This document shows positions 2,656 to 61,700 of a stretch of 64,000 nucleotides of DNA, one piece after another. A program made the translations under genes and the position numbers. The notes beneath the pieces were generated by a model that was not told the origin of the DNA, did no database searches, and worked only from the letters and a program-made list of their open reading frames with translations. Each line of letters opens with the position of its first letter. Within the stretch, counting starts at the first letter, position 1. Location of the stretch: the NCBI GenBank assembly GCA_045613315.1, contig JAZLAV010000018.1, positions 33,975 through 97,974 of the forward strand, written 5' to 3'. Source of the DNA: Candidatus Enterousia sp. GTDB taxonomy: Bacteria > Pseudomonadota > Alphaproteobacteria > Rs-D84.

Positions 2656-4212
2656 ATGGTTCAATATCTGGATAATAATAATTCTGGTTTTGCGATGTGG
2701 AACGCAAATAAATCGGCAACGCGCAAACGCAGTGGTTTGGGAATTTTGTGGTGGTTTCTTATATTTATGGTGTCGTGGTGGGCATTTGGTACAATTTTTG
2801 GCGATAAACCCAAGACGGATGTTTTGTCCGAAACGGACGTTATTGAACAAGATGTGTCGGCGGTACCCTTAAATAAAATCGCGTCTGATAAAATAAATGC
2901 CGATGTTCGCGGGCTGCGCGTGTCGAACATTGAATTGAACGAATTCCCAGATGGTGCGGAAAATGTAAAATTATTATCTGGGGAAAAAGATTTTATTGAA
3001 ATCGGTTTGAATGCAAACGGAACAATTGCGCCGGTTGCAGATACGGTGTGGAACAATGTGGGCGACAAATACACATGGCGTAATTCAGATGGTGTTGAAT
3101 TTAACCGCGTCGTTTCGGTTTCTGATTATGTAATAACAATCAACGATGAAATAAAAAATAATTCTGATCGTGATTTTTCTTTTTCGCCGTATGTGCGTAT
3201 TCGTCGAAATAATGATCATGTGACGTCTGCGGGTGTTTATACGGGGGCGGTTGCGTTGGTAAATGGCGATGTTGAACACAATGATTGGCGCGCAATCGCC
3301 AAAAAACCACGTGCATATACCACAACAAATGGATTTGCGGGATTTGCAGACCAGTATTGGGAAACGGTTGTTAAAATTGATACGCCGGATCAAACAATTC
3401 GTGCCCAGAAAAACGGCGATACATATGGTATTGAAACAACTGCGCGCCCGGTTATGGTTTCTGCGGGTGATGCCAAAAATGTAATAACACATATTTTTGC
3501 AGGGCCCCGTGACGGTCGCATTTTGCGCGATGTGGAACGGAATATTTCCGGTATCGAAAAAACGGTTGATTATGGGTGGTTCTGGTTCTTGGCAATGCCG
3601 ATGTTGTGGTTAATTAACACGATAAATGCGTTTGTTATGAATTATGGAATTGCCATTATTATTATGACGATTTTGCTGCGTTTGGCGATGTGGCCATTGA
3701 CGCGCAAATCATACACATCCATGGCGGCGATGCAGAAAATGCAGCCCGAAATGCAACGGATTCAGAAACTTTACGCAAATGACAAACAGCGTATGCAGTT
3801 GGAAATGATGAAACTGTATCAGACGCATAAAACATCGCCGATGTCGGGTTGTTTGCCGATGTTGATTCAGATTCCAATTTTCTTTGCGTTATATAAAGCG
3901 TTGCTGATTTCGGTGCAAATGCGTAATGCACATTTTCTGTGGATATCTGATTTGGCGGTGATGGATCCGTATTTCATTTTGCCGATACTGATGGGGCTGT
4001 CAATGTGGTTGCAACAGCGTTTGCAGTCGGGTGCAACCAAATCGTCCGATAAAAACGATGTTGCGGCACAAACACAACGTGCGATGCGTTGGATGCCGAT
4101 TATATTTACAGTAATGTTTGCGTGGATGCCGGCCGGGTTGGTGTTGTATTGGACTGTATCAAATCTGTTCGGAATCGTGCAGATGTATATAATAAAACGT
4201 AAAATGAAATAA
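2656..4212 (+). CDS. yidC: membrane protein insertase YidC
   Basis: 518 aa. The C-terminal 60-kDa IMP region MWPLTRKSYTSMAAMQKMQPEMQRIQKLY...MSGCLPMLIQIPIFFALYKAL is a clear YidC/Oxa1 core. Confidence 0.85.
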   Translation: MVQYLDNNNSGFAMWNANKSATRKRSGLGILWWFLIFMVSWWAFGTIFGDKPKTDVLSETDVIEQDVSAVPLNKIASDKINADVRGLRVSNIELNEFPDGAENVKLLSGEKDFIEIGLNANGTIAPVADTVWNNVGDKYTWRNSDGVEFNRVVSVSDYVITINDEIKNNSDRDFSFSPYVRIRRNNDHVTSAGVYTGAVALVNGDVEHNDWRAIAKKPRAYTTTNGFAGFADQYWETVVKIDTPDQTIRAQKNGDTYGIETTARPVMVSAGDAKNVITHIFAGPRDGRILRDVERNISGIEKTVDYGWFWFLAMPMLWLINTINAFVMNYGIAIIIMTILLRLAMWPLTRKSYTSMAAMQKMQPEMQRIQKLYANDKQRMQLEMMKLYQTHKTSPMSGCLPMLIQIPIFFALYKALLISVQMRNAHFLWISDLAVMDPYFILPILMGLSMWLQQRLQSGATKSSDKNDVAAQTQRAMRWMPIIFTVMFAWMPAGLVLYWTVSNLFGIVQMYIIKRKMK

Positions 4213-4213
4213 T

Positions 4214-4243
4214 AAAAATGCCCGTTCGGGCATTTTTATTATT
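4214..4243 (+). terminator. rho-independent terminator after yidC
   Basis: aaaaatgcccgttcgggcatttttatt: GC stem, 3-nt loop, T-run. Confidence 0.7.
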
Positions 4244-4577
4244 GTACCAGGTATCGATACAGTGCATATGGCGTCTGGATTGTGCGTGCGGTGACACCAA
4301 TTGCGCGTTTCGATAAATCGACACATGAATATGCGTGTGTTTGGGTAAATTCATGCGGGGCGTCAATCGGAACATATACAAATTGCCATCCGTGCATGCG
4401 CAAAATACGAATGTCGCGTGTGGTAAAATATATCTTTTCAATTTTGCCAGGCCGTACAAATTGATACATGACAAGTTTTTTGCCAAATTGAAATATCGGT
4501 GCACAATGCCGAAATTTTCGACACAGTAAACGTGGCAATACCTTGGACGTGTTATGTGAAAATGCGATGATAATCAT
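4239..4577 (-). CDS. hypothetical protein (112 aa), downstream of virB10
   Basis: Intact ORF with a GGGGG RBS 6-8 nt upstream of the ATG. No recognisable domain. Confidence 0.4.
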   Translation of the reverse strand: MIIIAFSHNTSKVLPRLLCRKFRHCAPIFQFGKKLVMYQFVRPGKIEKIYFTTRDIRILRMHGWQFVYVPIDAPHEFTQTHAYSCVDLSKRAIGVTARTIQTPYALYRYLVQ

Positions 4578-4596
4578 AATTATTCCCCCGGGTTGT

Positions 4597-4941
4597 TTAT
4601 TTGTTTATCCAACCGCGGATGATGGCGGCGTGCTCGATTGTTTCCATGGCATCGTGCCACAATGCCGCGGCACGATTTTCCGCCCAGATATATTGGTGCG
4701 GGGCACGACGACGATCGCCATATTTTTTCATGACCCCCAATTGTTCGTCGGTTAATTTCCCGCACAGATACAATTTTGTCACCAATGATTCAACATCCAT
4801 CAATTCGCACACGCGACGGGTCGGATTGCCATGTTGGCGTGTAAAACCATTTTGAACCGATTTGGAATACAAGAACCAAAACCATAATTGTTCGGCGCTT
4901 TGGAATTTTTCTGGTGTATATGCGATTTGTGTTTTTGTCAT
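4597..4941 (-). CDS. hypothetical protein (114 aa)
   Basis: Intact ORF with a GGGAG RBS upstream. No domain recognised. Confidence 0.4.
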   Translation of the reverse strand: MTKTQIAYTPEKFQSAEQLWFWFLYSKSVQNGFTRQHGNPTRRVCELMDVESLVTKLYLCGKLTDEQLGVMKKYGDRRRAPHQYIWAENRAAALWHDAMETIEHAAIIRGWINK

Positions 4942-5178
4942 TTGTTTTTCTCCCTTGGTAAATTAAATTTAATGTATTTATAGACACGAATTAGAACGAT
5001 ATTAAATATTACAACCGCCGGTTGAAGTGCGAATCGGTTTTCCGATTCGTGTATAGAATTTGGTTTTGTGTAATCGAATCGGCCGTTGCGGTTTGTTTTT
5101 AATAAAAACCGCGCATTTAATGCGCGGTTTTATTGCATATGGTACATTATGAAGAGTTCATTGTGCCCCCCCGTGGAT

Positions 5179-5212
5179 AAAAAATAACCCGCATCGTGCG
5201 GGTTATTTTTAT
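5179..5212 (-). terminator. terminator hairpin downstream of virB10
   Basis: aaaaaataacccgcatcgtgcgggttattttt: an inverted repeat flanked by A/T runs. On the minus strand it follows the virB10 stop at 5232. A second hairpin sits at 5104-5134 (aaaaaccgcgcatttaatgcgcggtttt). Confidence 0.6.
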
Positions 5213-5231
5213 GGTTAACTTATCTTTACCA

Positions 5232-7580
5232 TCACAAAATCGGTGGAAAACAATCGCCACCCGTTTGTGGACAGCAATTGAATCCTTGGTCACCCATATC
5301 GGTATAAATTTCGCCGGTACAGCAACCGTTTGCATCCGGTGCCAATCCGTCTTCACAGGTTATAATGTTTTCCGTCGGTGCCGTTTCAACGGGCAACTTT
5401 TCTGATTGGTACGGATTCTTTATCGAACCATCGTCATTATATTTCAATCCCAAAACCTGTTCGTTATAGGTTTTTGTATCGGTGGCTTTACTGGCGATAC
5501 TGTTGTTGTTGCTTGTGGATTGTTGATTTTGATAAACTGCTTCCTGGCGAGCATTATTTATTGCCTGGTAATTACTGGCCTGGCAATATGCAACCAGTGT
5601 ACTGTACGAATACCCCAATTTATTTAACGCATCCGCGATGACGGCATTATAATCCATTGCACGCAACGCACCGGTTTTGGAATCTGTAATACAATATTGC
5701 GACAGGTTAAACGAACGTGCCTGGCCAACCCACGAACCGTCGTCATAATCGGCCTTGGCGTCCCAATGGGGAACCGAACGAACAACGGTTGCCCTGTTCG
5801 CTGCGCCGTTCATATAGCATTTTTTACTGCCGTCTGTACAAGCAACCATCAAATCATACGGTGAATAAACTGTAATGCGTGTACCGGCCGGAATTGTGAA
5901 CGGTGGAACGGTATTGTCCATCATATCAACCAATAACTTTTGTGCCACCTGGTTCCAGGCGGTAATAATTTCATTTTTCGCCAGTTCAGATGAACGCATT
6001 GTTCCGCTTTGCACAACCGTGTTGTTGTCCAAATCAATTTGATTAACAAATTTATCGGCAACGGGTGCAATCATATTTACCGCCGCCGGTACAATGGCGG
6101 TTAACATCGGCATAACAAATTGTTCCAAGTAATCGGTACTGCCGCGACCGGGCACACCAACACGTCCCTGGGCATCGGCCGATGTTGGTTCGGTACCATT
6201 TTGGAAATTAAATTCAACGCCGTTTGGTAAAACAAATTGATACCATTTTATATTCATACGACCAATTGCCTTGTACGGGCCCGGAACATTTCCGGTGACA
6301 TAGCCCAACATAAGTGTTCCCGTGGGAATAATGATTGTTCGACCGTTATCTGAATATACGTTTCTATCAACTGTGGCACGCACAGGGAAATGCAGATTAT
6401 CGGCTTCCAGTGCAGCATCCGCCCGAACGTCGGAAACAATCGTTGCGGGAATCGGTTTGTATTGGCGCAATATAAATGTTCGGTCGTATGGTTGGGTTGC
6501 AACAATGGCATTTTGGTCCGTGGTGCCATAGGACACATCTGTATCCGGTTGCTTCGTTACCAGTTTTTTCATGCCCCCAGTCGGCGCGTCGGCAACAACG
6601 GCATCGGTTGCGCGCACGGATGTTTTACGTGCCCATGGCGCGTCATTCAATGTTGGCATATTGCCAGACGATACAACATTTCCAATATGTTCGGCATCGG
6701 TACCGATGCGTTTGCCATCACCGTTAATGTCGGTGATAATACCGCTGTCCGGGTTGTAAACACCGGTGGCGTTTTTGCATTCTGTATCTGAAAAAGGATG
6801 AAAATAGTATGCACCGTGTTCCGGTTTTATCCAACCAATTTGATTGCCCGATGCATCATATCCCGGGAACGCAAAATCAGAACAAGATTCCGACGCACGT
6901 GCGACCGGTTTTGGTTCTTCAATCGGTGTCGAAATTTCCTTTTTCCCGGCGAACGGGTCGGCGGGCGCAATCGTTTTTATTTCCGATTCAATTTCGTTGA
7001 CCGCGGGTTTCACAACGGGTTCCGGTTCCACGATTGGTTTTGCAACCGGTTTCGGTGTTTCTTTGATTTCAGGTGCGGTGGCGCCCAAAATAACAGTTAT
7101 TTTTTCCGCTGTTTTCATCGTGTCGGGTTCCGATGCCGCGCGCCAATCAACATACATTGTCACCGTTTCCGGTTTCATTGCGATATTTGGTGCGTATTCC
7201 AAAATCACACGGCACGGAATCGCAGCGGTTATTTCGCCGGCATCCGTACAGGTCGTTTTTACATTAAATCCATCGATTTCCTTGTTCCGGCGAACGGTTG
7301 CACGGGCGGGCGCATTGGTTTTTACGGTAATTGTTTCGGTTTTTTTTGTACCAACCATAACATTTGCCCAATCAACAGTGTCATTGGACAACGTGACCTT
7401 GACCTGGACATCATTTACCTTTTGAGTGTTTTTTTTCGCCCTGCCGCCGCCAATTAACAATGTTAACAGTATAACAACAACCAAAAATGCCGCCCCCAAC
7501 AGCAACCATTGAACGTATTTTGGTGTTGTATTGCGCAAATCTGAAAATTGCTGGCCAAGTTTATTCATGTTAATTCGCAC
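5232..7580 (-). CDS. virB10: type IV secretion system protein VirB10/TrbI family, with about 200-aa Cys-rich C-terminal extension
   Basis: N-terminal TM (WLLLGAAFLVVVILLTLLIGG), a Pro-rich linker (KETPKPVAKPIVEPEPVVKPAVNE), and the VirB10 C-terminal barrel region (NGRTIIIPTGTLMLGYVTG...ADAQGRVGVPGRGSTDYLEQF...FTIPAGTRITVYSPYDL). Possible starts are GTG at 7580 or ATG at 7568. Confidence 0.75.
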   Translation of the reverse strand: MRINMNKLGQQFSDLRNTTPKYVQWLLLGAAFLVVVILLTLLIGGGRAKKNTQKVNDVQVKVTLSNDTVDWANVMVGTKKTETITVKTNAPARATVRRNKEIDGFNVKTTCTDAGEITAAIPCRVILEYAPNIAMKPETVTMYVDWRAASEPDTMKTAEKITVILGATAPEIKETPKPVAKPIVEPEPVVKPAVNEIESEIKTIAPADPFAGKKEISTPIEEPKPVARASESCSDFAFPGYDASGNQIGWIKPEHGAYYFHPFSDTECKNATGVYNPDSGIITDINGDGKRIGTDAEHIGNVVSSGNMPTLNDAPWARKTSVRATDAVVADAPTGGMKKLVTKQPDTDVSYGTTDQNAIVATQPYDRTFILRQYKPIPATIVSDVRADAALEADNLHFPVRATVDRNVYSDNGRTIIIPTGTLMLGYVTGNVPGPYKAIGRMNIKWYQFVLPNGVEFNFQNGTEPTSADAQGRVGVPGRGSTDYLEQFVMPMLTAIVPAAVNMIAPVADKFVNQIDLDNNTVVQSGTMRSSELAKNEIITAWNQVAQKLLVDMMDNTVPPFTIPAGTRITVYSPYDLMVACTDGSKKCYMNGAANRATVVRSVPHWDAKADYDDGSWVGQARSFNLSQYCITDSKTGALRAMDYNAVIADALNKLGYSYSTLVAYCQASNYQAINNARQEAVYQNQQSTSNNNSIASKATDTKTYNEQVLGLKYNDDGSIKNPYQSEKLPVETAPTENIITCEDGLAPDANGCCTGEIYTDMGDQGFNCCPQTGGDCFPPIL

Positions 7581-7589
7581 CCGAAATAA

Positions 7590-9131
7590 TTATTGTATTC
7601 TTACCACGTTGCAACTGGCACCACTGAACTTTAACAATTGGTCGCACAGTTTTTGTGCCGTTTCAATGTCTGCCATTGGCCCGATGCGTAAACGATACAG
7701 ACGCGCGGTCGTTGAACCCGCACCCAATTCACCGACACCCTGTTCGTCGACAGCAAAGAACACCTTGTCCTTGTACGGGGTAAGCAACCCAGAACCATTT
7801 TCACCACTGAATTTTGCCAACAGGCCAACCCAATAATCATCCAATGCTTTGACCGAGGTGTCGGATTTCAATTCAACCGCGACGCCGGTTTGATTGCTGG
7901 AAATAATGGGAATGTTCGATTGCGGTAAATATGAACCCGCCGTCACACGTTCGGTTGGCATCATCGTAACCGCCCCAGACGATGTAGTGCCTGTGATTGT
8001 TGGTTGTGGATATACCTGGCCTGCGACAAAACCAGACGGCATATAATAACCCGCTGGATTTGTGTTTTGGACATTTCCAACCATAACTGGTGTGCCGGTG
8101 TAGTTTACCCCGGCCGCGTTAATCGCGTTCACATCATATCCATATGCCATCGTATTTAACGATTGACCGGACATCATGGATTGTGCAACGTTGGCCTCGG
8201 CCAATGCCATAACGGAATTGGTATCCGCAATAAGGAACGGTTTTTCGCGCTTTTTAATGCACACTATGCGTTGACCACTGCGCAGAACCATATCGCCAAC
8301 GGCTTCTACTATCAATAAACGTCCATCTTCACCGTCGGTGCGGAATCCAACCGGGGATTCGCCGCCTTCGACCAATAATGATACGACGGGACGCTGGGTC
8401 ATGGCAATAACCTTGTCCCCAAAGTCAATATATGTAAATATGCGATCGCGCCATACGCGTTCGGGCGCAATTACATAGTCGTCCGGGTTCGGAACAAATA
8501 TATCCAAATCGAAACGAAATTCAGATGGATCAATCTTCATAGATTTAATCCAACCATAATCTTCGCCGTCAACACCAATGGTGCCACCCGATGTCTTGGT
8601 TGTCTTTTTGAATATAGACGACATTCCGCCCGCGGCCGTGGTGGTTGTGCCCGCTATATTTGGCAATGCCGCGTTACCATCCATAACCACTTCCACCTGG
8701 GAATAGGTAATTTCAGACGAATTTGTTGGTTCCGCGCGAAGATAGAAAATATACTGATTGCCCGATTTGCCAGACACAATCATATTTGTGTCGCCACCCT
8801 GGGTATTGGCATTTGGGGTAATGTACATCACGTTTGCGCCCGGGGTTGTGTCGATTTGGAACATACCATCGTTTCCGATAGTCGCCTCGTCAATCTGTTC
8901 GCCGGTGGGCAACGATATCATTGTCACCATGCCACTGCGTAATCTTATTGGTAAAACGGTTCCCTTGGACCAAGATAGTTGTGCGTATCCGGGTTTCGTA
9001 CTGCCCGCGGCCATGTTGGCATTCGGATTGTTCCACGCGGTTTGCACCGCCATAGCATTCAATGGTGCCGTGCACACAATCGCCAAACACAGTAATGATA
9101 CATTTATTTTTAAGGTATTCAAAAAAGTCAT
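7590..9131 (-). CDS. virB9: type IV secretion system protein VirB9/TrbG family, fused to C-terminal SPOR-like domain
   Basis: Signal peptide, then a VirB9 N-domain (PIRLRSGMVTMISLPTGEQI...TNMIVSGKSGNQYIFYLRA) and C-domain (RIFTYIDFGDKVIAMTQRPVVSLLVEGG...LRSGQRIVCIKK). The roughly 95-aa C-terminal tail ...LYRLRIGPMADIETAQKLCDQLLKFSGASCNVVRI resembles SPOR peptidoglycan-binding domains. Confidence 0.75.
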   Translation of the reverse strand: MTFLNTLKINVSLLCLAIVCTAPLNAMAVQTAWNNPNANMAAGSTKPGYAQLSWSKGTVLPIRLRSGMVTMISLPTGEQIDEATIGNDGMFQIDTTPGANVMYITPNANTQGGDTNMIVSGKSGNQYIFYLRAEPTNSSEITYSQVEVVMDGNAALPNIAGTTTTAAGGMSSIFKKTTKTSGGTIGVDGEDYGWIKSMKIDPSEFRFDLDIFVPNPDDYVIAPERVWRDRIFTYIDFGDKVIAMTQRPVVSLLVEGGESPVGFRTDGEDGRLLIVEAVGDMVLRSGQRIVCIKKREKPFLIADTNSVMALAEANVAQSMMSGQSLNTMAYGYDVNAINAAGVNYTGTPVMVGNVQNTNPAGYYMPSGFVAGQVYPQPTITGTTSSGAVTMMPTERVTAGSYLPQSNIPIISSNQTGVAVELKSDTSVKALDDYWVGLLAKFSGENGSGLLTPYKDKVFFAVDEQGVGELGAGSTTARLYRLRIGPMADIETAQKLCDQLLKFSGASCNVVRIQ

Positions 9132-9159
9132 GCCGTTCTTTCCTTTCTTGTGTTCAGGG

Positions 9160-9894
9160 CTATTCGTTTCCGATAACGAATGCGTTCAACGGGTCGTCAT
9201 CGCCCGTTTCAACAGAATATCCTGTGACCCGCAACCCCAATGGATTTTCCATGTGGTCTGTCCATTTGGTGCTTTGGGTATTATCGGGTTCCACCTTTAC
9301 TTTTATTCTATAATCTTTTCGGTCGGTCTGTCCATAACTATTTGTGCAGAACCATTTAAAATCAACCGTATATGTTGTTCCGTCGGCTGTGTATTTCGTG
9401 ATACCACCCTGGGAAAATTCCACAGAACACGAAAACCCAAAATTGCCGTCAACACCATTGGCCGTGTTCAACAGATATTCTTGATACATCGCGGTATTGG
9501 CAAACCCGGCATAGACGTCGGACGATGACATTGTTCTGATACGGTTCCAATTGTTCGTCATAATGCGAATGTTTGGGTCGATTTCGTTTCTAGTTTTTAT
9601 ATATTCGGCAATAAATGCGCGTTTGTATTCGTCCAAACCGTCAACATCGGGCATAACCTTGGTTAATGTAATTTCGGTATTTGTTGGGTTCGCAGACCGC
9701 AGAAAGAACACCTCGGGCCGGTCCAGTGGGAACATTTTGTACAATGTCACCGCCATTGCGGCCAAAACAACCAACGTTGTCGCAAAGACAAGCATTAAAA
9801 CCCGAGATAGCAAAATTGGCGGTTCTATGCGGTTTTGCACGGTTTCTCCCCCTTGTGTATGTTGATTGTAGACAAAATCGCGGTGGTGGTGCAA
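9160..9894 (-). CDS. virB8: type IV secretion system protein VirB8/TrbF family
   Basis: Bitopic: a cytoplasmic N-terminus, one TM (VLMLVFATTLVVLAAMAVTLY), and a periplasmic NTF2-like domain with the VirB8 NPxG motif (ENPLGLRVTGYSV). Confidence 0.75.
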   Translation of the reverse strand: MHHHRDFVYNQHTQGGETVQNRIEPPILLSRVLMLVFATTLVVLAAMAVTLYKMFPLDRPEVFFLRSANPTNTEITLTKVMPDVDGLDEYKRAFIAEYIKTRNEIDPNIRIMTNNWNRIRTMSSSDVYAGFANTAMYQEYLLNTANGVDGNFGFSCSVEFSQGGITKYTADGTTYTVDFKWFCTNSYGQTDRKDYRIKVKVEPDNTQSTKWTDHMENPLGLRVTGYSVETGDDDPLNAFVIGNE

Positions 9895-9945
9895 GTAAAA
9901 ATTACAATATTTTTAGATTTTACAAAAGATAATGTTAATTTTTGC

Positions 9946-9974
9946 TTGCACAAAAATATTTAAAACAATATAAT
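9946..9974 (+). promoter_or_regulatory. sigma70-like promoter for tRNA-Trp-secE-nusG
   Basis: TTGCAC, 17-nt spacer, TATAAT; about 90 nt upstream of tRNA-Trp. The same region is divergent to the virB8 operon. Confidence 0.5.
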
Positions 9975-10066
9975 ATTTCCACTTGATTTTTTATAATGAC
10001 GTGGTATCTTAGCGCAGACTATTGGGGTATTGCGGCATAAATCGGGCGATATTGTATGGTTATCAC

Positions 10067-10140
10067 AGGGGCATAGTTCAACGGTAGAATATCGGTCTCC
10101 AAAACCGCGGATGAGGGTTCGATTCCTTCTGCCCCTGCCA
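10067..10140 (+). tRNA. trnW: tRNA-Trp (anticodon CCA)
   Basis: Cloverleaf by eye: acceptor AGGGGCA/TGCCCCT, anticodon loop CTCCAAA, T-loop GTTCGATTC, encoded CCA end. It lies in the canonical position before secE-nusG. Confidence 0.85.
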
Positions 10141-11463: not shown

Positions 11464-12138
11464 ATGAAAGCTACTAAAAGACAACAGACTTGGACAGCAT
11501 TAGACAAAGAAAAAGTCTATTCCATTGCGGATGCAATTGAAGCGTTGCGTCCGTTTGCATCCAAGAAGTTTGATGAAAGTTTGGAAATCGCAATCCGTTT
11601 GGGTATTGATGTGACCAAGGCCGACCAGAACATTCGTGGAATGTTGTCGTTGCCAAATGGTACCGGTAAAAAGGTCCGTGTTGCGGTCTTTACCGTTAAT
11701 TCCCAGGACGATGCCAAAAAGGCTGGCGCCGATGTTGTTGGTGGCGAAGAATTAATCGAAGCCGTGGCAAATGGCCAAATTAATTTCGACCGTGTTATCG
11801 CAACACCGGATATGATGCCAAAAATGTCCAAGGTCGCACGTGTTTTGGGCCCCAAGGGTTTGATGCCGAATCCAAAATTGGGTACGGTCACAAACAATGT
11901 TGCCGAAGCAGTCAAAATTGCCAAGGCGGGCCAAATTGAATATCGTGCCGAAAAGAAGGGCATTATTCACGCCGGTATTGGTAAAATGTCGTTCACGACG
12001 GAACAATTGGTTGAAAATGCAAATGCGTTGATTGATCAATTGAAAAAGGTTAAACCATCATCGACCAAGGGCCAGTATATATTGGGTGCGGCGGTTGCCA
12101 CAACCCAGGGACCGGGTCTGAAAGTTGATGTAAAATAA
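11464..12138 (+). CDS. rplA: 50S ribosomal protein L1
   Basis: 224 aa L1 signature sequence, immediately after rplK. Confidence 0.9.
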   Translation: MKATKRQQTWTALDKEKVYSIADAIEALRPFASKKFDESLEIAIRLGIDVTKADQNIRGMLSLPNGTGKKVRVAVFTVNSQDDAKKAGADVVGGEELIEAVANGQINFDRVIATPDMMPKMSKVARVLGPKGLMPNPKLGTVTNNVAEAVKIAKAGQIEYRAEKKGIIHAGIGKMSFTTEQLVENANALIDQLKKVKPSSTKGQYILGAAVATTQGPGLKVDVK

Positions 12139-12324
12139 TAATTCGGTTCGGACAAATGTCTGAACCGAAAACGAGATTTCTGTCCAAGACTGATGGTGTC
12201 GTGGAAATCACGGCTTAATTGCCATCATAGACAAAGAAACAATTCTTTGGGGCAGGAACCAAGAGCCCCATCTGGATGAAAGTCCGGTGGAAAGTTGAAC
12301 AAAACGAAGAAGTAAGGGTATAAG
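12139..12324 (+). promoter_or_regulatory. rplA terminator/attenuator hairpin plus rplJ (L10) leader
   Basis: Hairpin ttcggttcggacaaatgtctgaaccgaa just after the rplA stop, followed by about 150 nt of untranslated leader before rplJ. This is the position of the L10(L12)4 autoregulatory leader in other bacteria (established knowledge; the structure was not modelled here). Confidence 0.4.
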
Positions 12325-12804
12325 ATGAGACGCGAAGAAAAATCAGATTTGATTTCAGCGTTGCAGTCGTCGCTTCAGGGTGCAAACGGTGTTTTCGTCG
12401 TCGAAAACAATGGTTTGACAGTTAAAGAATTCGAAGCCCTGCGTAATGAATTACGTCCATTGGTTTCGATTTTCAAAGTTGTCAAAAACCGTTTGATGAA
12501 ATTGGCATTGAAAGATACCGATTTCGAAGCTGTATCCGATATGATGAAACGTCCGACCGCGGTTGCCGTTGCAACCGATGCGCTGGCCGTGACCAAGGTT
12601 TTGGCCAAGTTTGCAGAAGATCACGCAAACCTGAACATTATCGGTGGTAAAATGGATGCAGACGTCTTGGACAAAGACGGCATTGTGCAATTATCCAAGC
12701 TTCCGTCGCTGTTGGAAATTCGTGGTACAATCGCGCGTATATTGGTCGAACCAGCATCGCGCCTGGCACGTGTTTCAGCAGAGTATGGAAAAAAGAATCA
12801 ATAA
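12325..12804 (+). CDS. rplJ: 50S ribosomal protein L10
   Basis: 159 aa; position and sequence (…VVKNRLMKLALKDT…) typical of L10. Confidence 0.85.
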   Translation: MRREEKSDLISALQSSLQGANGVFVVENNGLTVKEFEALRNELRPLVSIFKVVKNRLMKLALKDTDFEAVSDMMKRPTAVAVATDALAVTKVLAKFAEDHANLNIIGGKMDADVLDKDGIVQLSKLPSLLEIRGTIARILVEPASRLARVSAEYGKKNQ

Positions 12805-12827
12805 AAACCTGAATAAGGAGTATTAAA

Positions 12828-13193
12828 ATGGCAGACATTCAGAAATTAGTTGAAGAATTGTCAAAATTGAGTGTTTTGGAAGCGGTTGAACTGTCCAAAG
12901 CATTGGAAGAAACATGGGGTGTTAGTGCCGCCGCCGCAGTTGCAGTTGCAGCCGGTCCAGCAACAGCCGCCGCCGAAGAAAAGACAGAATTTGATGTAGT
13001 TTTGTCGGATGTTGGCGCAAACAAATTGGCTGTTATCAAAGCGGTTAAAGACATCACTGGTTTGGGATTGGGCGAAGCCAAGGCTTTGGTCGAATCTGCA
13101 CCAAAGGCAATCAAAGAAGCCGTTGCCAAAGATGAAGCCGATAAAATGAAGGCGACATTAGAAGCAGCCGGTGCAAAAGTTGATTTGAAATAA
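12828..13193 (+). CDS. rplL: 50S ribosomal protein L7/L12
   Basis: 121 aa. N-terminal dimerisation helix, Ala-rich hinge ([19 protein letters not shown]), and the C-terminal domain ...[32 protein letters not shown]... Confidence 0.9.
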
Positions 13194-13196
13194 TCA

Positions 13197-13253
13197 AAAC
13201 CCGCGAACACGCGGTTCGTGTTCAAAGAAAATCCCAAACCAAATGGTTTGGGT
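13197..13253 (+). terminator. rplL-rpoB intergenic attenuator (two hairpins)
   Basis: ccgcgaacacgcgg and cccaaaccaaatggtttggg hairpins between the rplL stop and rpoB, without a long T-run. This is consistent with the known partial terminator at this position. Confidence 0.4.
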
Positions 13254-13358
13254 CACTCAAGTGCCCACCAAGGATAAAATCCACGGTGGGCAAATGGGCG
13301 TAAAAAACAAAACAAAAATTTTGTTTGCAAAACGCAAAAATATAAAGGATAGAAACCC

Positions 13359-16300
13359 ATGGCCGTTATCCAGAAATTTAGAAAATCGTTTGGTAAAAGT
13401 TTTTTGCAAACTCCGCTTCCCGATTTAGTCGAAATTCAATATAATTCCTATAAAGACTTTTTACAGGCGGATGTCGAACCGCAAAATCGCAAGAATATGG
13501 GATTGCAGAACGTGTTTTCGTCCATGTTCCCAATCAAAGATTATGCGGGGATTGCAGACCTGGAATTCGTTGAATATACATTGGATAAACCTGTGTATAA
13601 CGTCAAGGAATGCATGCTGCGTAATATGACATATTCCAGCAAATTGAAATTGAAATTAAGATTGATTCTTTGGGATATCGCCGAAGATGGTAAAAAAACA
13701 CTGCGCGATATCAAAGAACAAGAGATATTTATGGGCGAAGTGCCGTTAATGACCGAACGCGGCAGTTTCATTGCATCCGGTGTTGAACGTGTTATCGTTT
13801 CACAAATGCATCGTGCCCAGGGTGTTGTTTTCGCAACCACCAAGGAAGCCAAGGTTGCAGGCAATCCAGTGACATATACGGCGCGTATCATCCCGGAACA
13901 TGGTTCTTGGATCGATTTCGAAGAAGCCAAGGGTGTCATTTATGTTCGTATTGATCGTCGTCGCAAGATTCCGGCGACGGTGTTGTTGCGTTGTCTGCCG
14001 GCGGCCGAAGACGAAAAGAAATGGGCGGCGGATCCACGCAAACAAAATATTCGTGGAATGTCCGATTCAGAAATACTGTCTGCGTTCTATAACCGTATCG
14101 CGTTAAAGTTCGATGGCAAAATGTGGATTGGCGACACAAATGCATTTGAAGGTTTGGATAAATACCGTTTGAATTATGATTTGATTAACCCACGGGATAA
14201 AAAAACATTGGCATCCAAGGGTGATCGTTTAACCGCAAAACGTTTGTCCAAAATCGTTTCTGCATCTAAAACATTTGGTATTTTGCCGGAATCGTTGGTT
14301 GGTGAATACCTGTTTGACCCGATTATGAATGGTGATGAAGTTCTGTATTCAGCGGGTACGGAAATTACCGAAGAAATCTTGTCTGATTTGGATAAATTGG
14401 GTGTCAAAGAAATATCGTTGATTTCCATCGATAATGCGACAATTACTGCACATATGCGCAATACATTGTTCGCAGACAAAACAACAAATCGTGAAGAAGC
14501 GTTGATTGAAATTTATAATATTATCCGTCCGGGAGAACGCCCAACGGTCGAAGCGGCAATCAACCTTTTCCAACGCCAGGGATTTGACCCCGCATACTAT
14601 GATTTGTCGGCGGTTGGTCGTTTCAAGATGAACAAACGTCTTAAAATAGATTCCGGGAAACGCCCAGAAGATGATCGTTTGTTGACCAAGGCGGATTTCT
14701 TGGCTGTGTTAAAGACATTAACAAATATCATTGACCACAAAGACACAATAGACGATATTGACAACCTGTCGAATCGTCGTGTTCGCGCGGTTGGTGAATT
14801 GCTGGAACAAAATTTCCGCACGGGTATGTTGCGGATTGAACGTTTGGTCCGCGAAGCATTAAGCAGCCCGAATATCGCGACAATGCAACCCCAAGATGTT
14901 ATTAACGTTAAACCGTTGATGAGTTTGGTTTCCGAATTCTTGGGAACTTCACAGTTGTCGCAATTTATGGACGCATATAATCCGTTGTCTGAATTGGAAC
15001 ACAAGCGTTTGATTTCGGCATTGGGGCCGGGTGGGTTAAATCGTGAACGTGCCGGCATCGATGTCCGCGACGTTCATCCGACACACTATGGTCGTTTGTG
15101 CCCGATTCATACACCCGAAGGTGCGAACATTGGTCTGATTTCGCACATGGCAACCTATGCACGCGTGAATCCGTATGGATTTATTGAAACGCCGTACTAT
15201 GTTGTCGAAAACAGTCGCGTCACAGACAAAATTGTATATTTGACGGCCGATGAAGAATTGGGGCACAAAATTGCCCAGGGTAATACCCCGACATCCGACA
15301 AGGGGATTTTGGCCGACGATATGGTGACGGCGCGTGTTGATGGCGAATTTACCATGGTACCAAAAGAAGAAATCGACCTTATTGACGTTGCCCCACGCCA
15401 GGTGGTGTCCATCGCAACCGGTTTAATCCCGTTCGTTGAAAACGATGACGCGAACCGTGCGTTGATGGGGTCGAACATGCAACGCCAGGGTGTACCACTT
15501 ATGCGGGTCCAGGCCCCATTGGTTGGAACCGGCATTGAACGCGAGGTTGCGCGCGATTCCCGCACGGGTGTTGTTGCCAAACATGCCGGCGTCGTTGAAT
15601 CAGTTGATGCAAATCGTATCGTTGTTAAATGTATGAACAGCCGTAATGTTGTGACGGGTGTTGATATTTACAACCTGGAAAAATTCGAACGCAGCAACAG
15701 TGAAACATTGATTCACCAAAAACCGTTGGTCAAGGTTGGCGATCGTATTGGCGCCGGCGACATTATCGCGGACGGTTCGTCAATGAATTATGGTGAATTG
15801 GCGTTGGGTCGCAATGTGTTGGTTGCATTTTTGCCGTGGCGCGGATACAACTATGAAGACGCTATTGTGATTAGTGAACGTATTTCACGTGATGACGCGT
15901 TTACATCAATCAAGATTGTTGAAAAAGAATTCAAGGTTCGTGATACGCAATTGGGCCCAGAAAGTTTCACACGCGACATTCCAAATGTCGGCGAAGAGGC
16001 ATTAAAGAATCTGGACGAATCTGGTATTATCTATGTCGGTGCACGTGTAAAACAGGGCGATATTTTGGTCGGTCGTGTTTCGCCAAAATCCGAAACATTG
16101 TTAACCCCAGAAGAAGCGTTGTTGCGCAACATCTTTGGTGAAAAGGCTTTGAATGTTAAGGATACATCACTGCGCGTTGGTCCAAACGAAGAAGGTACCG
16201 TTATCGGTGTGAACGTATTGACCCGCCATGGTGTCAAAAAAGACGAACGCACCCAGATGATTGAATTACAGAAAATCGAAAAGATTAACAAAGACCGCGA

Positions 16301-26049: not shown

Positions 26050-26168
26050 TAACTGTTTTAACGAATTATGAAAACTTTCACAGTTTGTGTAAAATAAAAA
26101 TGTTTTTTTGCTTGTTTATGGGGTGTATGTATGATAAAATGATACGTAATAGAAGGGAAGGATTTACA

Positions 26169-33094: not shown

Positions 33095-33194
33095 GATTGT
33101 GTATTGTAATGCCGTGCGGCATAATCGCAAGTTATAAATGAAAACTCTTTCATACGATTTGTTTTTGTGGTATAATAGGGTAAAAGTTGTTCTA

Positions 33195-46290: not shown

Positions 46291-46301
46291 ATGGAACAAA
46301 C

Positions 46302-47348: not shown

Positions 47349-47349
47349 T

Positions 47350-48549: not shown

Positions 48550-48580
48550 AAAACACCGCCCGAATGGGCGGTGCTTATTT
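48550..48580 (+). terminator. rho-independent terminator
   Basis: caccgcccgaatgggcggtg + cttattt. Confidence 0.65.
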
Positions 48581-48583
48581 CCT

Positions 48584-48658
48584 GGTGCCAGTTGTCGGAC
48601 TTGAACCAACGACCCTCTGATTACAAATCAGATGCTCTACCAGCTGAGCTAAACTGGC
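48584..48658 (-). tRNA. tRNA-Thr (anticodon UGU)
   Basis: The reverse complement is GCCAGTTTAGCTCAGCTGGTAGAGCATCTGATTTGTAATCAGAGGGTCGTTGGTTCAAGTCCGACAACTGGCACCA. The anticodon loop TTTGTAA gives UGU, and CCA is encoded. Confidence 0.8.
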
Positions 48659-58752: not shown

Positions 58753-58762
58753 GTAATATTGG

Positions 58763-60080: not shown

Positions 60081-61700
60081 TTATAGATTAAACAGTTTGA
60101 CTTGATACTCAAAGTCATCACTTCTTGATGCTTTATCCAAAATATCTCTAACTACCATATTAATTTTGCCACTTAATAGTTTATTCACGATTGACGGACT
60201 CAGATACGAGAGAGATAAATATTTATAAAATAATCTTGGTGAAGTACGAGCATTATGTATAACATTATCTACATTGCCATTTTGTTCGTATAGTTCCCTA
60301 TATTTCCATGCGGTGGCAAAGGCTTTTAGAATCAGATGGTTGTTGTCAGTGACATTTAGCACACCATTTTTACCACGGTCATATACTGTATTCACATATT
60401 TACGAAGGAATACTTTCTCTGTGATTGTTATGCTGTTATCACCAATTATGTATTCCATTTTGTCTGTGTTTGGATTCATATAATTTTCCTTGATAAAAGG
60501 CTGTAATTTTTGTGCATCGGTCGTAATTGCATAAATCAGCTGCTCTTGTGAATATACAACTTTCTCAACCAGTGATTGAATTAGGTTGCGTTTTTCTACG
60601 AAATTCATGTTTGTAACATCAATTCGTTTTAATATAGTTGCCAGATTTATGGGCAAATTCGACATATCGCTGTTCAGAAAATCTGTTATCGTTTTTATAA
60701 CAATTTCATCCACACGGCCAGCGGTTAGATAGAACCCCTTAGTCGCGTAATAATACGCGGTCTTTTTGCCTTTAGCACTGGTACGCTGGTTTATAAATTT
60801 TACACCATTGTGATTAAATAATTTTCCAGTCAATATATTGGGGGCATGTGTGCTTTGGGATTTATTATTCGCATTATTAGCCAGCGCAATTTGGACACGA
60901 TTAAATAGTTCTGTAGAAATAATTGGCTCGTGTTCGCCTTTGGCAAAAGTGCCTTCTTTTTTATTTTCGATTTGCCCGATGTAAATCTTATCGCGCAATA
61001 TACGGTGCATACTCATTTTAGCAATAGGATTGCCACCACGTATTTTTCGTTTATTGGTTTCCCAGCGTTTACCATATATACCATTTTGTTTTGCGTATTC
61101 GGTTAAATCATTCACAGATTGCAGTTCTAGATATTTTTCAAACAGGTGTCGCACTTGTTCTGCTTCGGTTGGGTTTACTACCAACTTTTTGTTAATCAGG
61201 TCATAACCCAAACGTGGTGCACCACCCATCCACAGTCCTTTGGCTTTTGATGCACGGATTTTATCGCGTACACGTTCGCTTGAAACTTCACGTTCAAATT
61301 GGGCGAACGACAGCAACATATTCAATGTTAATTTACCCATAGATGTACTGGTATCAAATGATTGGGTAATGGACACGAAGTTTGCACCATATTTCTCAAA
61401 GTATTTCATCATATTGTGGAAATCCAATATGGAACGTGATAATCGGTCAACCTTGTAAACAACCACAGTATTAACCAAACCGTGCGCCATATCGTCCAGC
61501 ATTTGTTTTAATGCGGGGCGTTCCATGGTTCCGCCAGATATCGCCGCATCACTGTAAGTTTTATAATATTGCCAACCATTAAACGATTGTGATGCTATAT
61601 ATGCCTTGCACGATTCTTCTTGGTTCTGCAAAGAATTAAATTCCTGTTCAAGTCCATGTTCAGTTGATTTGCGTGTATAAATCGCACACTTAATTGTCAT
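60081..61700 (-). CDS. large serine recombinase (resolvase/invertase catalytic domain + recombinase domain)
   Basis: N-terminal CAIYTRKSTEHGLEQ (catalytic Ser) ... VVVYKVDRLSRS, then a recombinase/zinc-ribbon region; 539 aa. Confidence 0.8.
   Translation of the reverse strand: MTIKCAIYTRKSTEHGLEQEFNSLQNQEESCKAYIASQSFNGWQYYKTYSDAAISGGTMERPALKQMLDDMAHGLVNTVVVYKVDRLSRSILDFHNMMKYFEKYGANFVSITQSFDTSTSMGKLTLNMLLSFAQFEREVSSERVRDKIRASKAKGLWMGGAPRLGYDLINKKLVVNPTEAEQVRHLFEKYLELQSVNDLTEYAKQNGIYGKRWETNKRKIRGGNPIAKMSMHRILRDKIYIGQIENKKEGTFAKGEHEPIISTELFNRVQIALANNANNKSQSTHAPNILTGKLFNHNGVKFINQRTSAKGKKTAYYYATKGFYLTAGRVDEIVIKTITDFLNSDMSNLPINLATILKRIDVTNMNFVEKRNLIQSLVEKVVYSQEQLIYAITTDAQKLQPFIKENYMNPNTDKMEYIIGDNSITITEKVFLRKYVNTVYDRGKNGVLNVTDNNHLILKAFATAWKYRELYEQNGNVDNVIHNARTSPRLFYKYLSLSYLSPSIVNKLLSGKINMVVRDILDKASRSDDFEYQVKLFNL

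Follow-up and report, generated by a model that had tools for sequence, protein, structure and literature searches.

The virB8-virB9-virB10 operon and its neighbors

Within the window, i.e., the whole analyzed stretch of 64,000 nucleotides, open reading frame (ORF) calls place virB8, virB9, and virB10 next to each other on the minus strand, and Pfam matches agree with the gene identities proposed by an earlier sequence-only reading. Its description of the flanks also holds: yidC (2656-4212, plus strand) borders the trio on the virB10 side, while tRNA-Trp (10067-10140, plus strand), with secE and then nusG beyond, borders it on the virB8 side. The AT-rich divergent region between virB8 and tRNA-Trp (9841..10066) presumably harbors the operon promoter, judging from its sequence; sigma-70-like matches therein are only weak (e.g., 9938..9909). 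The sole strong terminator-like structure downstream of virB8 is an intrinsic-terminator-like hairpin with a 16-bp stem and a T-run (4208..4243, minus strand). The GC content of the trio resembles that of its surroundings, and neither an integrase nor repeats were found at the locus.

The host is an Enterousia-related member of the order Rs-D84, comprising Alphaproteobacteria of gut and rumen with genomes <1 Mb (PMC12306168). Related MAGs are classed by GTDB as Candidatus Enterousia, order Rs-D84, and many of the 266 species representatives with the extended VirB10 described below bear this name. The NCBI records of some relatives carry the label "uncultured Rickettsiales bacterium". The published Rs-D84 genome description does not mention a secretion system (PMC12306168).

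Two co-oriented ORFs of roughly 113 aa, previously noted downstream of the trio, proved to be real conserved genes. The first, orf114 (4597..4941, minus strand), lies directly 3' of virB10, encodes a cytoplasmic protein of 114 aa and is kept in 77 of 81 related loci with a median identity of 68% (YidC: 62%). The second, orf112 (4239..4577, minus strand; 112 aa), is the final gene ahead of the terminator, is kept in 75 of the 81 loci and shows Cys19, His24, Cys85, and a QTP motif as invariant features of the alignment. Neither orf114 (Pfam, NCBIfam, PDB) nor orf112 (Pfam, PDB) matched any entry in the databases given, and the outgroup operons examined contain no homologue of either. Both are clade-specific and candidate members of the machine.

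Pfam and NCBIfam searches of all large ORFs revealed no other type IV secretion system (T4SS) gene in the window, and tblastn with VirB2, VirB3, VirB4, VirB6, and VirD4 references remained blank there while the positive controls worked. Likewise, none of virB2, virB3, virB4, virB6, virB11, or virD4 was found within 10 kb on either side of the trio in the 81 related loci. The initial impression that these genes are not nearby is thus correct on both scales.

Domain architecture of the three proteins

VirB8 (226 aa; 9160..9840, minus strand) is a predicted bitopic inner-membrane assembly factor. Its most likely start is the GTG at 9840, preceded by a GGGGGAG Shine-Dalgarno sequence, the longest ORF reaching 9894. 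The protein matches the Pfam VirB8 family (PF04335; E=9e-17, 62 bits vs. a cut-off of 23.2) and shows an N-terminal transmembrane (TM) helix followed by a periplasmic NTF2-like domain; the NPxG motif recognized in the sequence-only reading is present as an invariant NPLG. As a single sequence it found nothing in the PDB. The family profile matched 11 solved VirB8/TrwG/TraE sequences over residues 36-207, among them TrwG (1e-7), Brucella VirB8, and pKM101 TraE, with Rickettsia RvhB8 as the weakest match (5e-3).

VirB9 (513 aa; 7590..9131, minus strand) consists of a signal peptide, an N-domain (residues ~48-150), a low-complexity linker, a C-domain with helices (~186-340), a second linker, and a C-terminal SPOR domain. 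The signal peptide and the two beta-domains, the latter anticipated by the earlier reading, are those of the VirB9/TrbG/CagX family, and Pfam CagX/VirB9 (PF03524) matches residues 51-294 (E=5e-22, 79 bits vs. a cut-off of 34.2). The score against the NCBIfam VirB9 equivalog (9e-14, 51.7 bits) lies below its cut-off of 217.7, thus marking the protein as a divergent family member. As a single sequence it found nothing in the PDB. Among the 120 best homologues its identity is 72-100%, and the C-domain (residues ~186-327) is invariant in 20 species.

The SPOR domain (7593..7934, minus strand; residues 400-513) exceeds the gathering cut-off of 21 of PF05036 both in isolation (25.5 bits) and within the whole protein (22.4 bits). 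All 10 VirB9 C-termini tested, outgroups included, gave a SPOR match (best E 2e-8), and the modeled region follows the beta-alpha-beta-beta-alpha-beta pattern that the family requires; a profile search of the region against the PDB found nothing. In general, SPOR domains bind to peptide-free glycan strands, chiefly where cells divide. FtsN, DamX, DedD, and RlpA likewise carry a C-terminal SPOR domain, but these are division or lytic proteins, whereas here the domain, predicted to bind peptidoglycan, is fused to a secretion-system ring protein.

For VirB10 (778 aa; 5232..7568, minus strand), alignment points to the ATG at 7568 as the most likely start, the longest ORF reaching 7580. The protein comprises a conserved cytoplasmic tail, a TM helix, a beta-sandwich, a Pro-rich linker, a small beta-domain, a TrbI barrel with antenna helices, a helical extension, and a Cys-module. 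The TM helix, Pro-rich linker, and C-terminal barrel had been read from the sequence before and are confirmed by the Pfam TrbI/VirB10 match (PF03743; E=4e-18, 66.5 bits vs. a cut-off of 35, residues 372-572) and by an AlphaFold2 model (mean pLDDT 68), in which the barrel bears the two-helix antenna typical of VirB10/TrbI proteins. A Foldseek search with this model retrieved CagY, TrwE, X. citri VirB10, TraF, and ComB10 at E-values from 4e-9 to 1e-5. The barrel (5865..6467, minus strand), presumably the outer-membrane channel, is almost invariant across the clade, and its antenna helices span residues 478-514 and 526-553.

Four further modules extend VirB10. Inserted after the TM helix is an Ig-like beta-sandwich of the ASH/PapD/MSP type (7077..7397, minus strand), predicted to be periplasmic and modeled at pLDDT 83-90; Foldseek related it to ASH/PapD-like domains (E ~1e-5, target TM 0.55-0.66), in addition to weak matches to Pfam ASH and NCBIfam choice-of-anchor-D. 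The small beta-domain (6681..6884, minus strand; pLDDT ~80) forms a near-invariant alignment block, CSDFAFPGY...GTDAEHIG, with two invariant cysteines. Beyond the barrel follows a helical C-terminal extension (5454..5711, minus strand; helices 642-704, pLDDT 64-75), which is conserved in the clade and not part of canonical VirB10, the Pfam TrbI domain stopping at residue 572. The C-terminus is formed by a six-cysteine module of ~40 aa (5241..5357, minus strand; C..PD.NGCC.GE.YTDMG..GFNCCP..GGDCFPP), invariant in the family alignment; as part of VirB10 it occurs only in the full-length family and is absent from outgroups. Tandem copies of the same module were also observed in small secreted proteins, and a bitopic 746-aa protein (P0388) ends with it. 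Both VirB9 and VirB10 are therefore domain-extended as claimed in the earlier reading, by SPOR in the former and by the Ig-like, small beta, helical, and Cys-modules in the latter. Neither the SPOR-VirB9 fusion nor the VirB10 extensions were found described in the literature searched.

Conservation of the locus

The trio occupies the same slot between nusG/secE/tRNA-Trp and yidC in 81 of 81 related loci, each time with a single virB8 and a single virB9, and the full order nusG, virB8-virB9-virB10-orf114-orf112, yidC is retained in 61 of them. The extended VirB10 is encoded by at least 266 species representatives. The dN/dS values of the trio range from 0.06 to 0.14 (virB8 0.09-0.14, virB9 0.06-0.10) compared with 0.10-0.14 for yidC and lspA, showing that purifying selection on the trio is as strong as on its essential neighbors.

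These data bear on whether the three genes could be left over from a decayed T4SS or an integrated conjugative element and no longer function. The strongly reduced genome and the failure to find other T4SS genes in the window would fit such decay. However, intact ORFs in an unchanged position, full-length VirB10 in that many species, the low dN/dS, the unremarkable GC content without integrase or repeats, and the housekeeping flanks leave this explanation exceedingly improbable; conservation and selection rule the remnant out. The sequence-only reading had tied this outcome to a genome without any VirB4, VirB11, or VirD4 ATPase, which does not apply to VirB11, as it is present in close relatives.

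A separate virB11 islet and related lineages

In a congener whose VirB10 and VirB9 are 70% and 88% identical to those of the window, virB11 and the trio lie on one contig of 222,966 bp (Ga0310690_10000073, locus L124; VirB11 P0543, VirB10 P0013, VirB9 P0127 in the JGI/ENA records). The two islets are >10 kb apart, each among housekeeping genes, and virB11 forms a single-gene islet away from the trio in close relatives. No virD4, virB6, virB2, or virB3 was found within 10 kb on either side of virB11. From these relatives, the window's own genome is likewise expected to encode virB11.

The clade ATPase, 82-96% identical within the clade, is a genuine VirB11 by sequence, scoring 7e-44 against NCBIfam VirB11 (TIGR02788) vs. 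6e-21 against the TadA family. It is 41.5% identical to VirB11 of the complete virB cluster of Microvirga, compared with at most 29% for the remaining plasmid VirB11s in the spread sample listed. About 18 JGI loci carry a VirB11 52-54% identical to the one following virB10 in the related lineage L084. The NCBI name of the clade ATPase is "TadA"; a prepilin-peptidase-like gene is present in a genome probably of this clade.

Divergent from virB11, 16 loci carry a lipoprotein gene, the product of which is 44-52% identical (1e-59) to that of the last gene of a virB8-virB9-virB10 operon in the deeper lineage L086. In the related lineage L084/L085, the gene order is B8-B7-B8-B9-B10-B11, B7 being a small lipoprotein. 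A duplicated B8 was seen only there, and L086 may have additional bitopic proteins resembling B8. The trio stands alone also in four outgroup lineages, and a sister gut lineage encodes giant VirB10s of 2,000-2,400 aa. No small lipoprotein ORF that could represent VirB7 was found at the trio locus, nor an SPCAC-type motif in the window or the 81 clade loci, whereas L084/L085, L086/L087, and Microvirga all possess this motif. The Enterousia-clade sequence covered, i.e., the window, the flanks of the trio and of virB11, and L093-L096, yielded no VirB4, VirD4, VirB6, VirB3, or VirB2; as it roughly corresponds to well under one-fifth of a genome, this is weak evidence for their absence.

The congener's VirB11 on the trio's contig, the lipoprotein link to L086, and the B8-B7-B8-B9-B10-B11 islet of L084/L085 argue against the trio being a self-contained scaffold. 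The earlier proposal of a stand-alone unit of VirB8, VirB9, and VirB10 thus stands as far as the locus is concerned, where the three genes are alone, but not in the sense of a free-standing device.

Comparison with known systems

The gene order of L084/L085 matches that of an islet of R. typhi rvh, the genes of which are scattered over several chromosomal islets (PMC4676284). Hallmarks of rvh are duplicated RvhB8, RvhB9, and RvhB4, multicopy RvhB6, and a missing VirB5 (PMC11077975). The Enterousia-clade system shares with rvh a chromosomal, vertically inherited location in scattered islets among housekeeping genes (here those of the trio and virB11), a reduced alphaproteobacterial genome, and the B8-B9-B10 order of the large islet rvhB7-rvhB8-rvhB9-rvhB10-rvhB11(-rvhD4). 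It differs in placing virB11 in an islet of its own with virD4 adjoining neither, in a trio locus without B7 and without a second B8 or B9, and in its host order, which is not Rickettsiales. Nor is the VirB8 sequence particularly close to Rickettsia RvhB8. The modeled VirB10 antenna of ~76 residues exceeds the proteobacterial average of ~57, a further similarity to rvh, but falls short of the ~127 reported for Rickettsiales. The SPOR domain, Ig-like domain, helical extension, and Cys-module were not found described for rvh in the literature searched. Hence, the clade system resembles rvh without being filed as such. The alternative raised before, that these are ordinary rvh genes with a relocated virB11, comes close with respect to the rvh-type organization and the virB11 islet, but "ordinary" overstates the case, as VirB9 is fused to SPOR and VirB10 is extended.

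The closest complete annotated relative found is the virB cluster on plasmid pMVF16-3 of Microvirga sp. VF16 (NZ_CP069357.1, ~671-686 kb). In addition to the VirB11 identity given above, its VirB9 and VirB10 barrel share ~35% and up to 41% identity, respectively, with those of the related lineages, and it has the VirB7-like lipoprotein motif DPIGIG...KSPCAC common to L084 and L086. In contrast to the Enterousia clade, it is a single uninterrupted plasmid cluster that also encodes VirB2, VirB3, VirB4, and VirD4, presumably conjugative because it adjoins a MobA/MobL relaxase; its VirB9 is also long (550 aa) but gives no SPOR match, and none of the Enterousia extensions is present in its VirB10 (590 aa). 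With the canonical VirB7/VirB9/VirB10 core (pKM101 TraN/O/F, R388 TrwH/F/E, X. citri), the trio shares the VirB10 barrel and antenna fold (Foldseek E ~1e-9, target TM ~0.53-0.55) and, by Pfam CagX, both the N- and the C-domain of VirB9. At the sequence level, however, similarity is very low, the trio locus has no VirB7 gene, and the extra domains approximately double the size of VirB9 and VirB10.

The best solved sequence matches of VirB10 are CagY and ComB10 (E ~5e-5) of the epsilonproteobacterial H. pylori Cag/ComB systems (CagX/CagY; comB8-comB9-comB10), and CagY illustrates that a VirB10 can bear very large extensions. We know of no SPOR domain on CagX or ComB9. H. pylori ComB genes are split into a comB8-comB9-comB10 unit and a separate comB2-4 unit. 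This raises the question of ComB-like DNA uptake, in which the T4SS would import environmental DNA over the outer membrane and pass it to ComEC, supplying nucleotides to a bacterium unable to make them. Besides the VirB10 relatives, comEC near the locus in relatives and the reported lack of complete amino-acid, nucleotide, and fatty-acid pathways in UBA9783, with Rs-D84 even more limited, favor this option (PMC12306168). The NCBIfam scores of VirB10 for ComB10 (1e-13, 51 bits, far below the cut-off of 300) and VirB10 (3e-16) do not discriminate between the two. ComB systems, to our knowledge, lack VirB11 and VirD4, whereas the Enterousia clade conserves VirB11. Moreover, comEC is widespread and located ~10 kb off among unrelated genes, and the relatives resemble rvh or conjugative-type clusters, the Microvirga plasmid encoding VirD4. 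We consider DNA uptake unlikely.

A probable dispersed secretion system and its possible role

With a probability of about three in four, the trio represents the core islet of a dispersed rvh-like P-type (VirB/VirD4-like) T4SS that is chromosomal and inherited vertically. As in Rickettsiales rvh, its genes would be distributed in small islets among housekeeping genes, with VirB4, VirD4, and VirB6 probably encoded elsewhere in the genome. VirB8 would act as inner-membrane assembly factor, and VirB9 and VirB10 would form the outer-membrane core complex, VirB10 spanning from the inner membrane with its cytoplasmic tail and TM helix to the outer membrane, where the two antenna helices would form the pore. 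The SPOR domain of VirB9 is predicted to pin the core ring to peptidoglycan and may stand in for VirB1 and the VirB7 lipoprotein, both of which are missing. The Ig-like sandwich, helical extension, and Cys-module of VirB10 could represent clade-specific additions for spacing or docking. Points against this reading are the T4SS components not found in the clade sequence covered, the trio locus without a VirB7-like lipoprotein, the silence of the published Rs-D84 description on secretion, the NCBI name "TadA" together with the prepilin-peptidase-like gene, and the low affinity of VirB8 to RvhB8.

A competing explanation, close to the specialized scaffold or co-opted core originally suspected, holds that VirB4 and VirD4 were lost and that VirB8, VirB9, and VirB10, perhaps with VirB11 and the lipoprotein, constitute a scaffold or channel that is anchored to peptidoglycan, spans the envelope, and plays a non-classical role, e.g., tethering the envelope, mediating attachment, or exchanging metabolites with a partner cell. 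It draws on the isolation of the trio in 81 loci and four outgroup lineages, the failure to find VirB4 and VirD4 in the clade sequence examined, the extreme conservation of VirB9 (above YidC), and the SPOR and clade-specific extracytoplasmic modules. The VirB4-family ATPase, however, is the only component that every T4SS has; we know of no T4SS-derived machine without it, and VirB11 is known to us only from complete T4SSs, yet is kept in the clade at the high identity given above. Scattered T4SS islets are the documented norm in Rickettsiales (PMC4676284), and the sequence searched is a minority of any genome. The virB11 islet, the lipoprotein link, and the rvh-type islet of the relatives likewise speak against co-option, making it improbable. 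In its favor, the genomes are reported to be devoid of standard transporters and possibly dependent on connections between cells (PMC12306168). It is similarly doubtful that a Rickettsia-like T4SS pared to its peptidoglycan-pinned core (SPOR-VirB9, extended VirB10 with its cysteine-knot-like module, VirB8, VirB11, and the lipoprotein, without VirB4 and VirD4) serves as the main contact or feeding conduit to a partner cell; if true, this would explain the metabolite supply of a gut bacterium reported to have no standard sugar, amino-acid, and peptide transporters.

The trio is a real, strongly conserved, and unusually decorated core. Under the preferred reading of a dispersed T4SS, it is one piece of a scattered machine, which may serve contact-dependent transfer between this metabolically dependent bacterium and a partner cell that it relies on, in either direction.

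Identity and genomic setting of the trio

The assignment of three consecutive minus-strand genes to VirB8, VirB9 and VirB10, originally made in a sequence-only reading, was confirmed by Pfam, NCBIfam, a VirB8 family profile and a structure model of VirB10. Pfam matches to VirB8 (ORF 9894..9160; VirB8 family, 9e-17), VirB9 (9131..7590; CagX/VirB9 family over residues 51-294, 5e-22) and VirB10 (ORF 7580..5232; TrbI/VirB10 family over residues 372-572, 4e-18) all scored well above the gathering scores. NCBIfam made the same three assignments, yet with scores far below the equivalog cut-offs, so that the trio represents divergent family members. Judged from the sequence, translation of virB8 likely begins at a GTG at 9840, preceded by a GGGGGAG Shine-Dalgarno motif, and that of virB10 at an ATG at 7568. 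The VirB8 family profile retrieved solved VirB8/TrwG/TraE structures across the entire periplasmic domain, and the proposed NPxG motif of VirB8 is present as an invariant NPLG. Single-sequence searches of VirB8 and VirB9 against the PDB gave nothing significant, and the structure model of VirB9 (pLDDT 45) is usable for its N-domain only. The AlphaFold2 model of VirB10 (mean pLDDT 68), showing a barrel with a two-helix antenna, matched CagY, TrwE, X. citri VirB10, pKM101 TraF, ComB10 and F TraB with E values of 4e-9 to 4e-5.

The trio is bordered by kefB-lspA-yidC on one side and by tRNA-Trp (10067-10140), secE, nusG, rplKAJL and rpoBC on the other, as had been described. Its reported isolation from other T4SS genes extends to the whole 64-kb window: domain searches of all large ORFs revealed no further T4SS gene, and tblastn with reference proteins found no VirB2, VirB3, VirB4, VirB6 or VirD4, while the same queries detected these genes in control loci. 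Three window ORFs without a Pfam match were evaluated as hidden ATPases. One of 789 aa proved to encode a secreted, Cys-rich protein, and the product of another, of 403 aa, resembles an outer-membrane beta-barrel; the third, of 567 aa, has no NCBIfam match and no tblastn match to reference VirB4 or VirD4.

Beyond the trio, the window contains several further features. A tRNA-Ser(tga) followed by a low-GC stretch (0.30-0.39) with a large serine recombinase (61700..60081, minus strand) occupies 58663-64000 and is probably an element integrated at the tRNA-Ser gene. An EcoRI-type adenine methyltransferase and a GmrSD_N/HNH nuclease form a small restriction or defence islet at 46146-48658, within a lower-GC block (0.39) adjoining tRNA-Thr. 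Upstream of three glycosyltransferase genes in a block of GC 0.32 (35889-39211), a 162-aa ORF combines an Mtd_N domain with a gp53-like tail-fibre C-terminus, a protein of the phage-receptor-binding type set in chromosomal surroundings. At 33138-34721 (plus strand), a 527-aa protein gives a match (2e-12) to the Pom family (Protochlamydia outer-membrane protein), a porin type unexpected in an alphaproteobacterium.

Additional domains of VirB9 and VirB10

That VirB9 and VirB10 are domain-extended was likewise substantiated. VirB9 (513 aa) carries a C-terminal SPOR domain; Pfam SPOR matched all ten VirB9 C-termini tested from six lineages (best E value 2e-8), the window protein scoring 25.5 bits at a cut-off of 21. 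A profile search of the SPOR region against the PDB gave nothing significant, and VirB9 and a SPOR domain are not mentioned together in any paper of the literature searched.

VirB10 (778 aa) is a multi-domain protein, in which the transmembrane segment, Pro-rich linker and C-terminal barrel recognized from the sequence were all recovered. Along the residues of the model, a conserved cytoplasmic tail and TM helix (1-39) are followed by an Ig-like ASH/PapD-type sandwich (58-164), the disordered Pro-rich linker (170-225), a small conserved beta-domain with two invariant cysteines (234-291), the TrbI barrel (355-610) enclosing antenna helices of ~76 residues (478-553), a helical extension (620-705) and an invariant six-cysteine module (740-778). 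Small secreted proteins contain this module of ~40 aa (window 5241-5357, minus strand; C..PD.NGCC.GE.YTDMG..GFNCCP..GGDCFPP) in tandem, and a bitopic 746-aa protein bears it at its C-terminus (carriers are the related proteins P0304, P0329, P0330, P0349 and P0388 and the loci L086:10622-10957 and L093:10001-12241). On VirB10 it is confined to the full-length family (down to ~40% identity) and absent in outgroups. The module seems to be an extracytoplasmic domain that is new to the literature and limited to the clade. The neighbourhood of the Cys-module protein P0407 contains housekeeping genes and a Peptidase_A24 operon, and no T4SS gene. In L093, an operon beside the module protein gene (5165-9789, minus strand) encodes a short Peptidase_A24 (prepilin peptidase-like, 155 aa) and further unannotated ORFs of 120, 536, 570 and 105 aa; it may be a pilus-like system, and its host genome is probably a clade member.

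Conservation within the clade

About 900 homologues of VirB10 are detectable; each of the best 120 is full-length (770-825 aa) and belongs to a MAG labelled "Alphaproteobacteria bacterium", in some cases on a contig as long as 0.6-0.89 Mb. When a single genome per species was scanned, at least 266 species had a relative; many carry the name Candidatus Enterousia, and their sources include the rumen, human and chicken guts and guts of other hosts. All of 81 loci, each taken from a different species, contain the trio, and the order nusG / virB8-virB9-virB10-orf114-orf112 / yidC-lspA was kept in 61; three loci with rearranged flanks (L035, L048 and L058) carry no T4SS genes in these flanks. Median identity to the window proteins over the 81 loci amounts to 44% for VirB8, 72% for VirB9, 53% for VirB10, 68% for the product of orf114 and 62% for YidC, and the VirB9 C-domain (~residues 186-327) is unchanged among 20 species. 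The dN/dS of the trio is 0.06-0.14 versus 0.10-0.14 for yidC and lspA, approximate values as dS is near saturation. The genes of the trio are passed on vertically and kept under strong constraint; they are not a mobile element and not a remnant. The idea that these isolated genes are a non-functional leftover is effectively excluded by this inheritance, the occurrence in all 81 loci and the low dN/dS.

Directly downstream of virB10, orf114 and orf112 (4239-4941, minus strand) occur in the Enterousia-related clade only. The sole strong terminator lies after orf112, and we therefore infer that both are co-transcribed by position, encoding cytoplasmic, clade-specific proteins. The orf114 product surpasses YidC in conservation, with EQLWFWFLY...TKLYL...RRAP.Q.IW.EN as an invariant signature; in orf112, Cys19, His24, Cys85 and a QTP motif are all invariant, a pattern that may point to a small thiol enzyme. 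No Pfam, NCBIfam or PDB match was obtained for either protein, profile searches of the PDB included. A conserved five-gene T4SS unit of trio, orf114 and orf112 was rejected, the two small outgroup ORFs 3' of virB10 being unrelated secreted proteins.

A separate virB11 islet

The sequence-only reading had proposed a search for T4SS ATPases elsewhere in the genome, and such an ATPase, VirB11, was found in clade relatives. A homology search with the VirB11 of locus L084 was saturated by its own lineage; scanning JGI metagenome contigs with a VirB11 alignment revealed a distinct tier of ~18 loci with 52-54% identity. Contig Ga0310690_10000073 (222,966 bp) carries one member of this tier, L124. Its ATPase (P0543), a VirB10 (P0013, 70% identical to the window protein) and a VirB9 (P0127, 88%) belong to JGI/ENA records sharing 222,966 bp as longest contig, which places virB11 and the trio of this relative on one contig in separate islets. 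The L124 ATPase (319 aa) matches NCBIfam TIGR02788 over its full length with 7e-44 versus 6e-21 for the TadA family, and is 41.5% identical to the VirB11 of a Microvirga plasmid, where it sits inside a complete cluster (B2-B3-B4-...-B7-like-B8-B9-B10-B11-...-D4). By these matches it is a genuine VirB11. The NCBI name of the clade protein, "Flp pilus assembly complex ATPase component TadA" (L124:10001-10978; L115-L132), is on the same grounds a probable misannotation hiding a T4SS.

In six long loci virB11 forms a single-gene islet in the order lipoprotein (minus), virB11 (plus), a variable ORF, priA-miaA (minus) and gap (plus). The lipoprotein is 44-52% identical (1e-59) to that encoded by the 182-aa gene ending the trio operon of outgroup locus L086, and this homology ties both islets together. 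A 729-aa ORF after virB11, evaluated as VirD4, is a secreted Cys-rich repeat protein. Large secreted Cys-rich repetitive proteins without family match recur in the clade, often adjoining T4SS islets (window 26085-28454, plus strand; L089:4305-6740; L124:427-5436 and 11484-13673), and may be surface proteins or substrates.

VirB4, VirD4, VirB6, VirB3 and VirB2 were absent from the clade sequence examined, by rough estimate well below one fifth of a genome, and a VirB4-alignment scan of viral contigs gave one generic match only. A core that was co-opted and operates without VirB4 would fit this absence, and we consider it improbable given the conserved VirB11; the free-standing scaffold of the sequence-only reading is not sustained for the same reason, while trio identity, isolation at the locus and domain extensions all held. 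A ComB-like role in DNA uptake, too, has little likelihood. The conservation of VirB11, the strength of selection and the documented scattering of related systems in islets together favour the trio being part of a complete, dispersed T4SS, to which we assign a probability of roughly three in four.

Outgroup lineages and relation to known systems

The trio recurs in outgroup lineages in differing surroundings. A first outgroup ("Rickettsiales bacterium"-type, L082/L083) has lipoprotein-B8-B9(SPOR)-B10 and two secreted ORFs between mutS and thrS. L086 combines an HTH gene, a VirB7-like lipoprotein, two bitopic ORFs, B8-B9(SPOR)-B10, a Cys-module protein, a secreted ORF and the 182-aa lipoprotein. 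L089 and L090 carry a LysM-M23 peptidase, a repeat protein and B8-B9(SPOR)-B10, and L088 has B9(SPOR)-B10 between rplM and grpE. In L084/L085, B8, a 59-aa lipoprotein, a second B8, B9(SPOR), a 2,266-aa B10 and VirB11 follow each other. VirB9 of these lineages is 40-55% identical to the window protein; from this identity across SPOR-bearing lineages, we infer that the SPOR-VirB9 fusion is ancestral to a group of reduced-genome, mostly gut-associated alphaproteobacterial lineages with habitually scattered T4SS genes.

L089 and L090 have large ORFs upstream of virB8 that were considered as diverged VirB4 and rejected, one being a Cys-rich repeat protein and the other an LRR-type repeat protein. 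In a sister gut lineage (L084:10001-16801, L085, L092, L097-L114), a giant VirB10 (2,000-2,400 aa), comparable in size to CagY, lies in an islet with rvh gene order; six ORFs for secreted, coiled-coil-like proteins precede this islet, and neither VirB4 nor VirD4 lies within 10 kb. Peptidoglycan enzymes (LysM-M23 peptidase, PBP1A and an S11 carboxypeptidase with a weak SPOR match) are repeatedly encoded close to the SPOR-VirB9 trio in several lineages (L089:2766-4028, L090:3913-5169, L090:12570-14432, L086:17780-19660, L001:18745-19842), which may be a coincidence of small genomes or a functional tie to cell-wall remodelling.

In R. typhi, the large rvh islet has the order B8-B7-B8-B9-B10-B11, with the remaining rvh genes in separate islets (PMC4676284); L084/L085 show this order. 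Hallmarks of rvh are duplication of B4, B8 and B9 and multicopy B6 (PMC11077975). The B8 and B9 duplications are not seen at the trio locus and the host is outside the Rickettsiales; the clade system thus resembles rvh in organisation and is not classed as rvh.

Proposed function and implications

In the proposed mechanism, VirB8 would nucleate assembly at the inner membrane, VirB9 would form the periplasmic ring, and VirB10 would span the envelope from its conserved cytoplasmic tail, a plausible ATPase contact point, to an outer-membrane antenna pore. The SPOR domain would fix the ring to peptidoglycan, possibly offsetting absent VirB7 and VirB1, and the Ig-like domain, helical extension and Cys-module of VirB10 may act as clade-specific spacers or docking surfaces.

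Rs-D84/Enterousia bacteria are common in human, livestock and poultry guts, with genomes below 1 Mb that lack the TCA cycle, respiration and standard nutrient transporters, and a probably partner-dependent lifestyle; their description mentions no secretion systems or interaction machinery (PMC12306168). The literature searched contained nothing on a T4SS in Rs-D84/Enterousia. The locus encodes a dispersed, rvh-like T4SS core with SPOR-fused VirB9 and multi-domain VirB10, in a lineage without previously described secretion machinery. Dispersal as single-gene islets means that such a T4SS is overlooked by cluster-based detectors. The six-cysteine module common to VirB10 and several secreted proteins constitutes an uncharacterised extracytoplasmic domain, and SPOR-VirB9 in several reduced-genome lineages suggests an alternative cell-wall fixing of the T4SS core without VirB7 and VirB1. 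Together, the trio and the virB11 islet indicate that the clade retains, under strong constraint, a type IV secretion apparatus like that of Rickettsia, whereby the partner-dependence hypothesis becomes testable, in terms of what this T4SS contacts and what passes through it.
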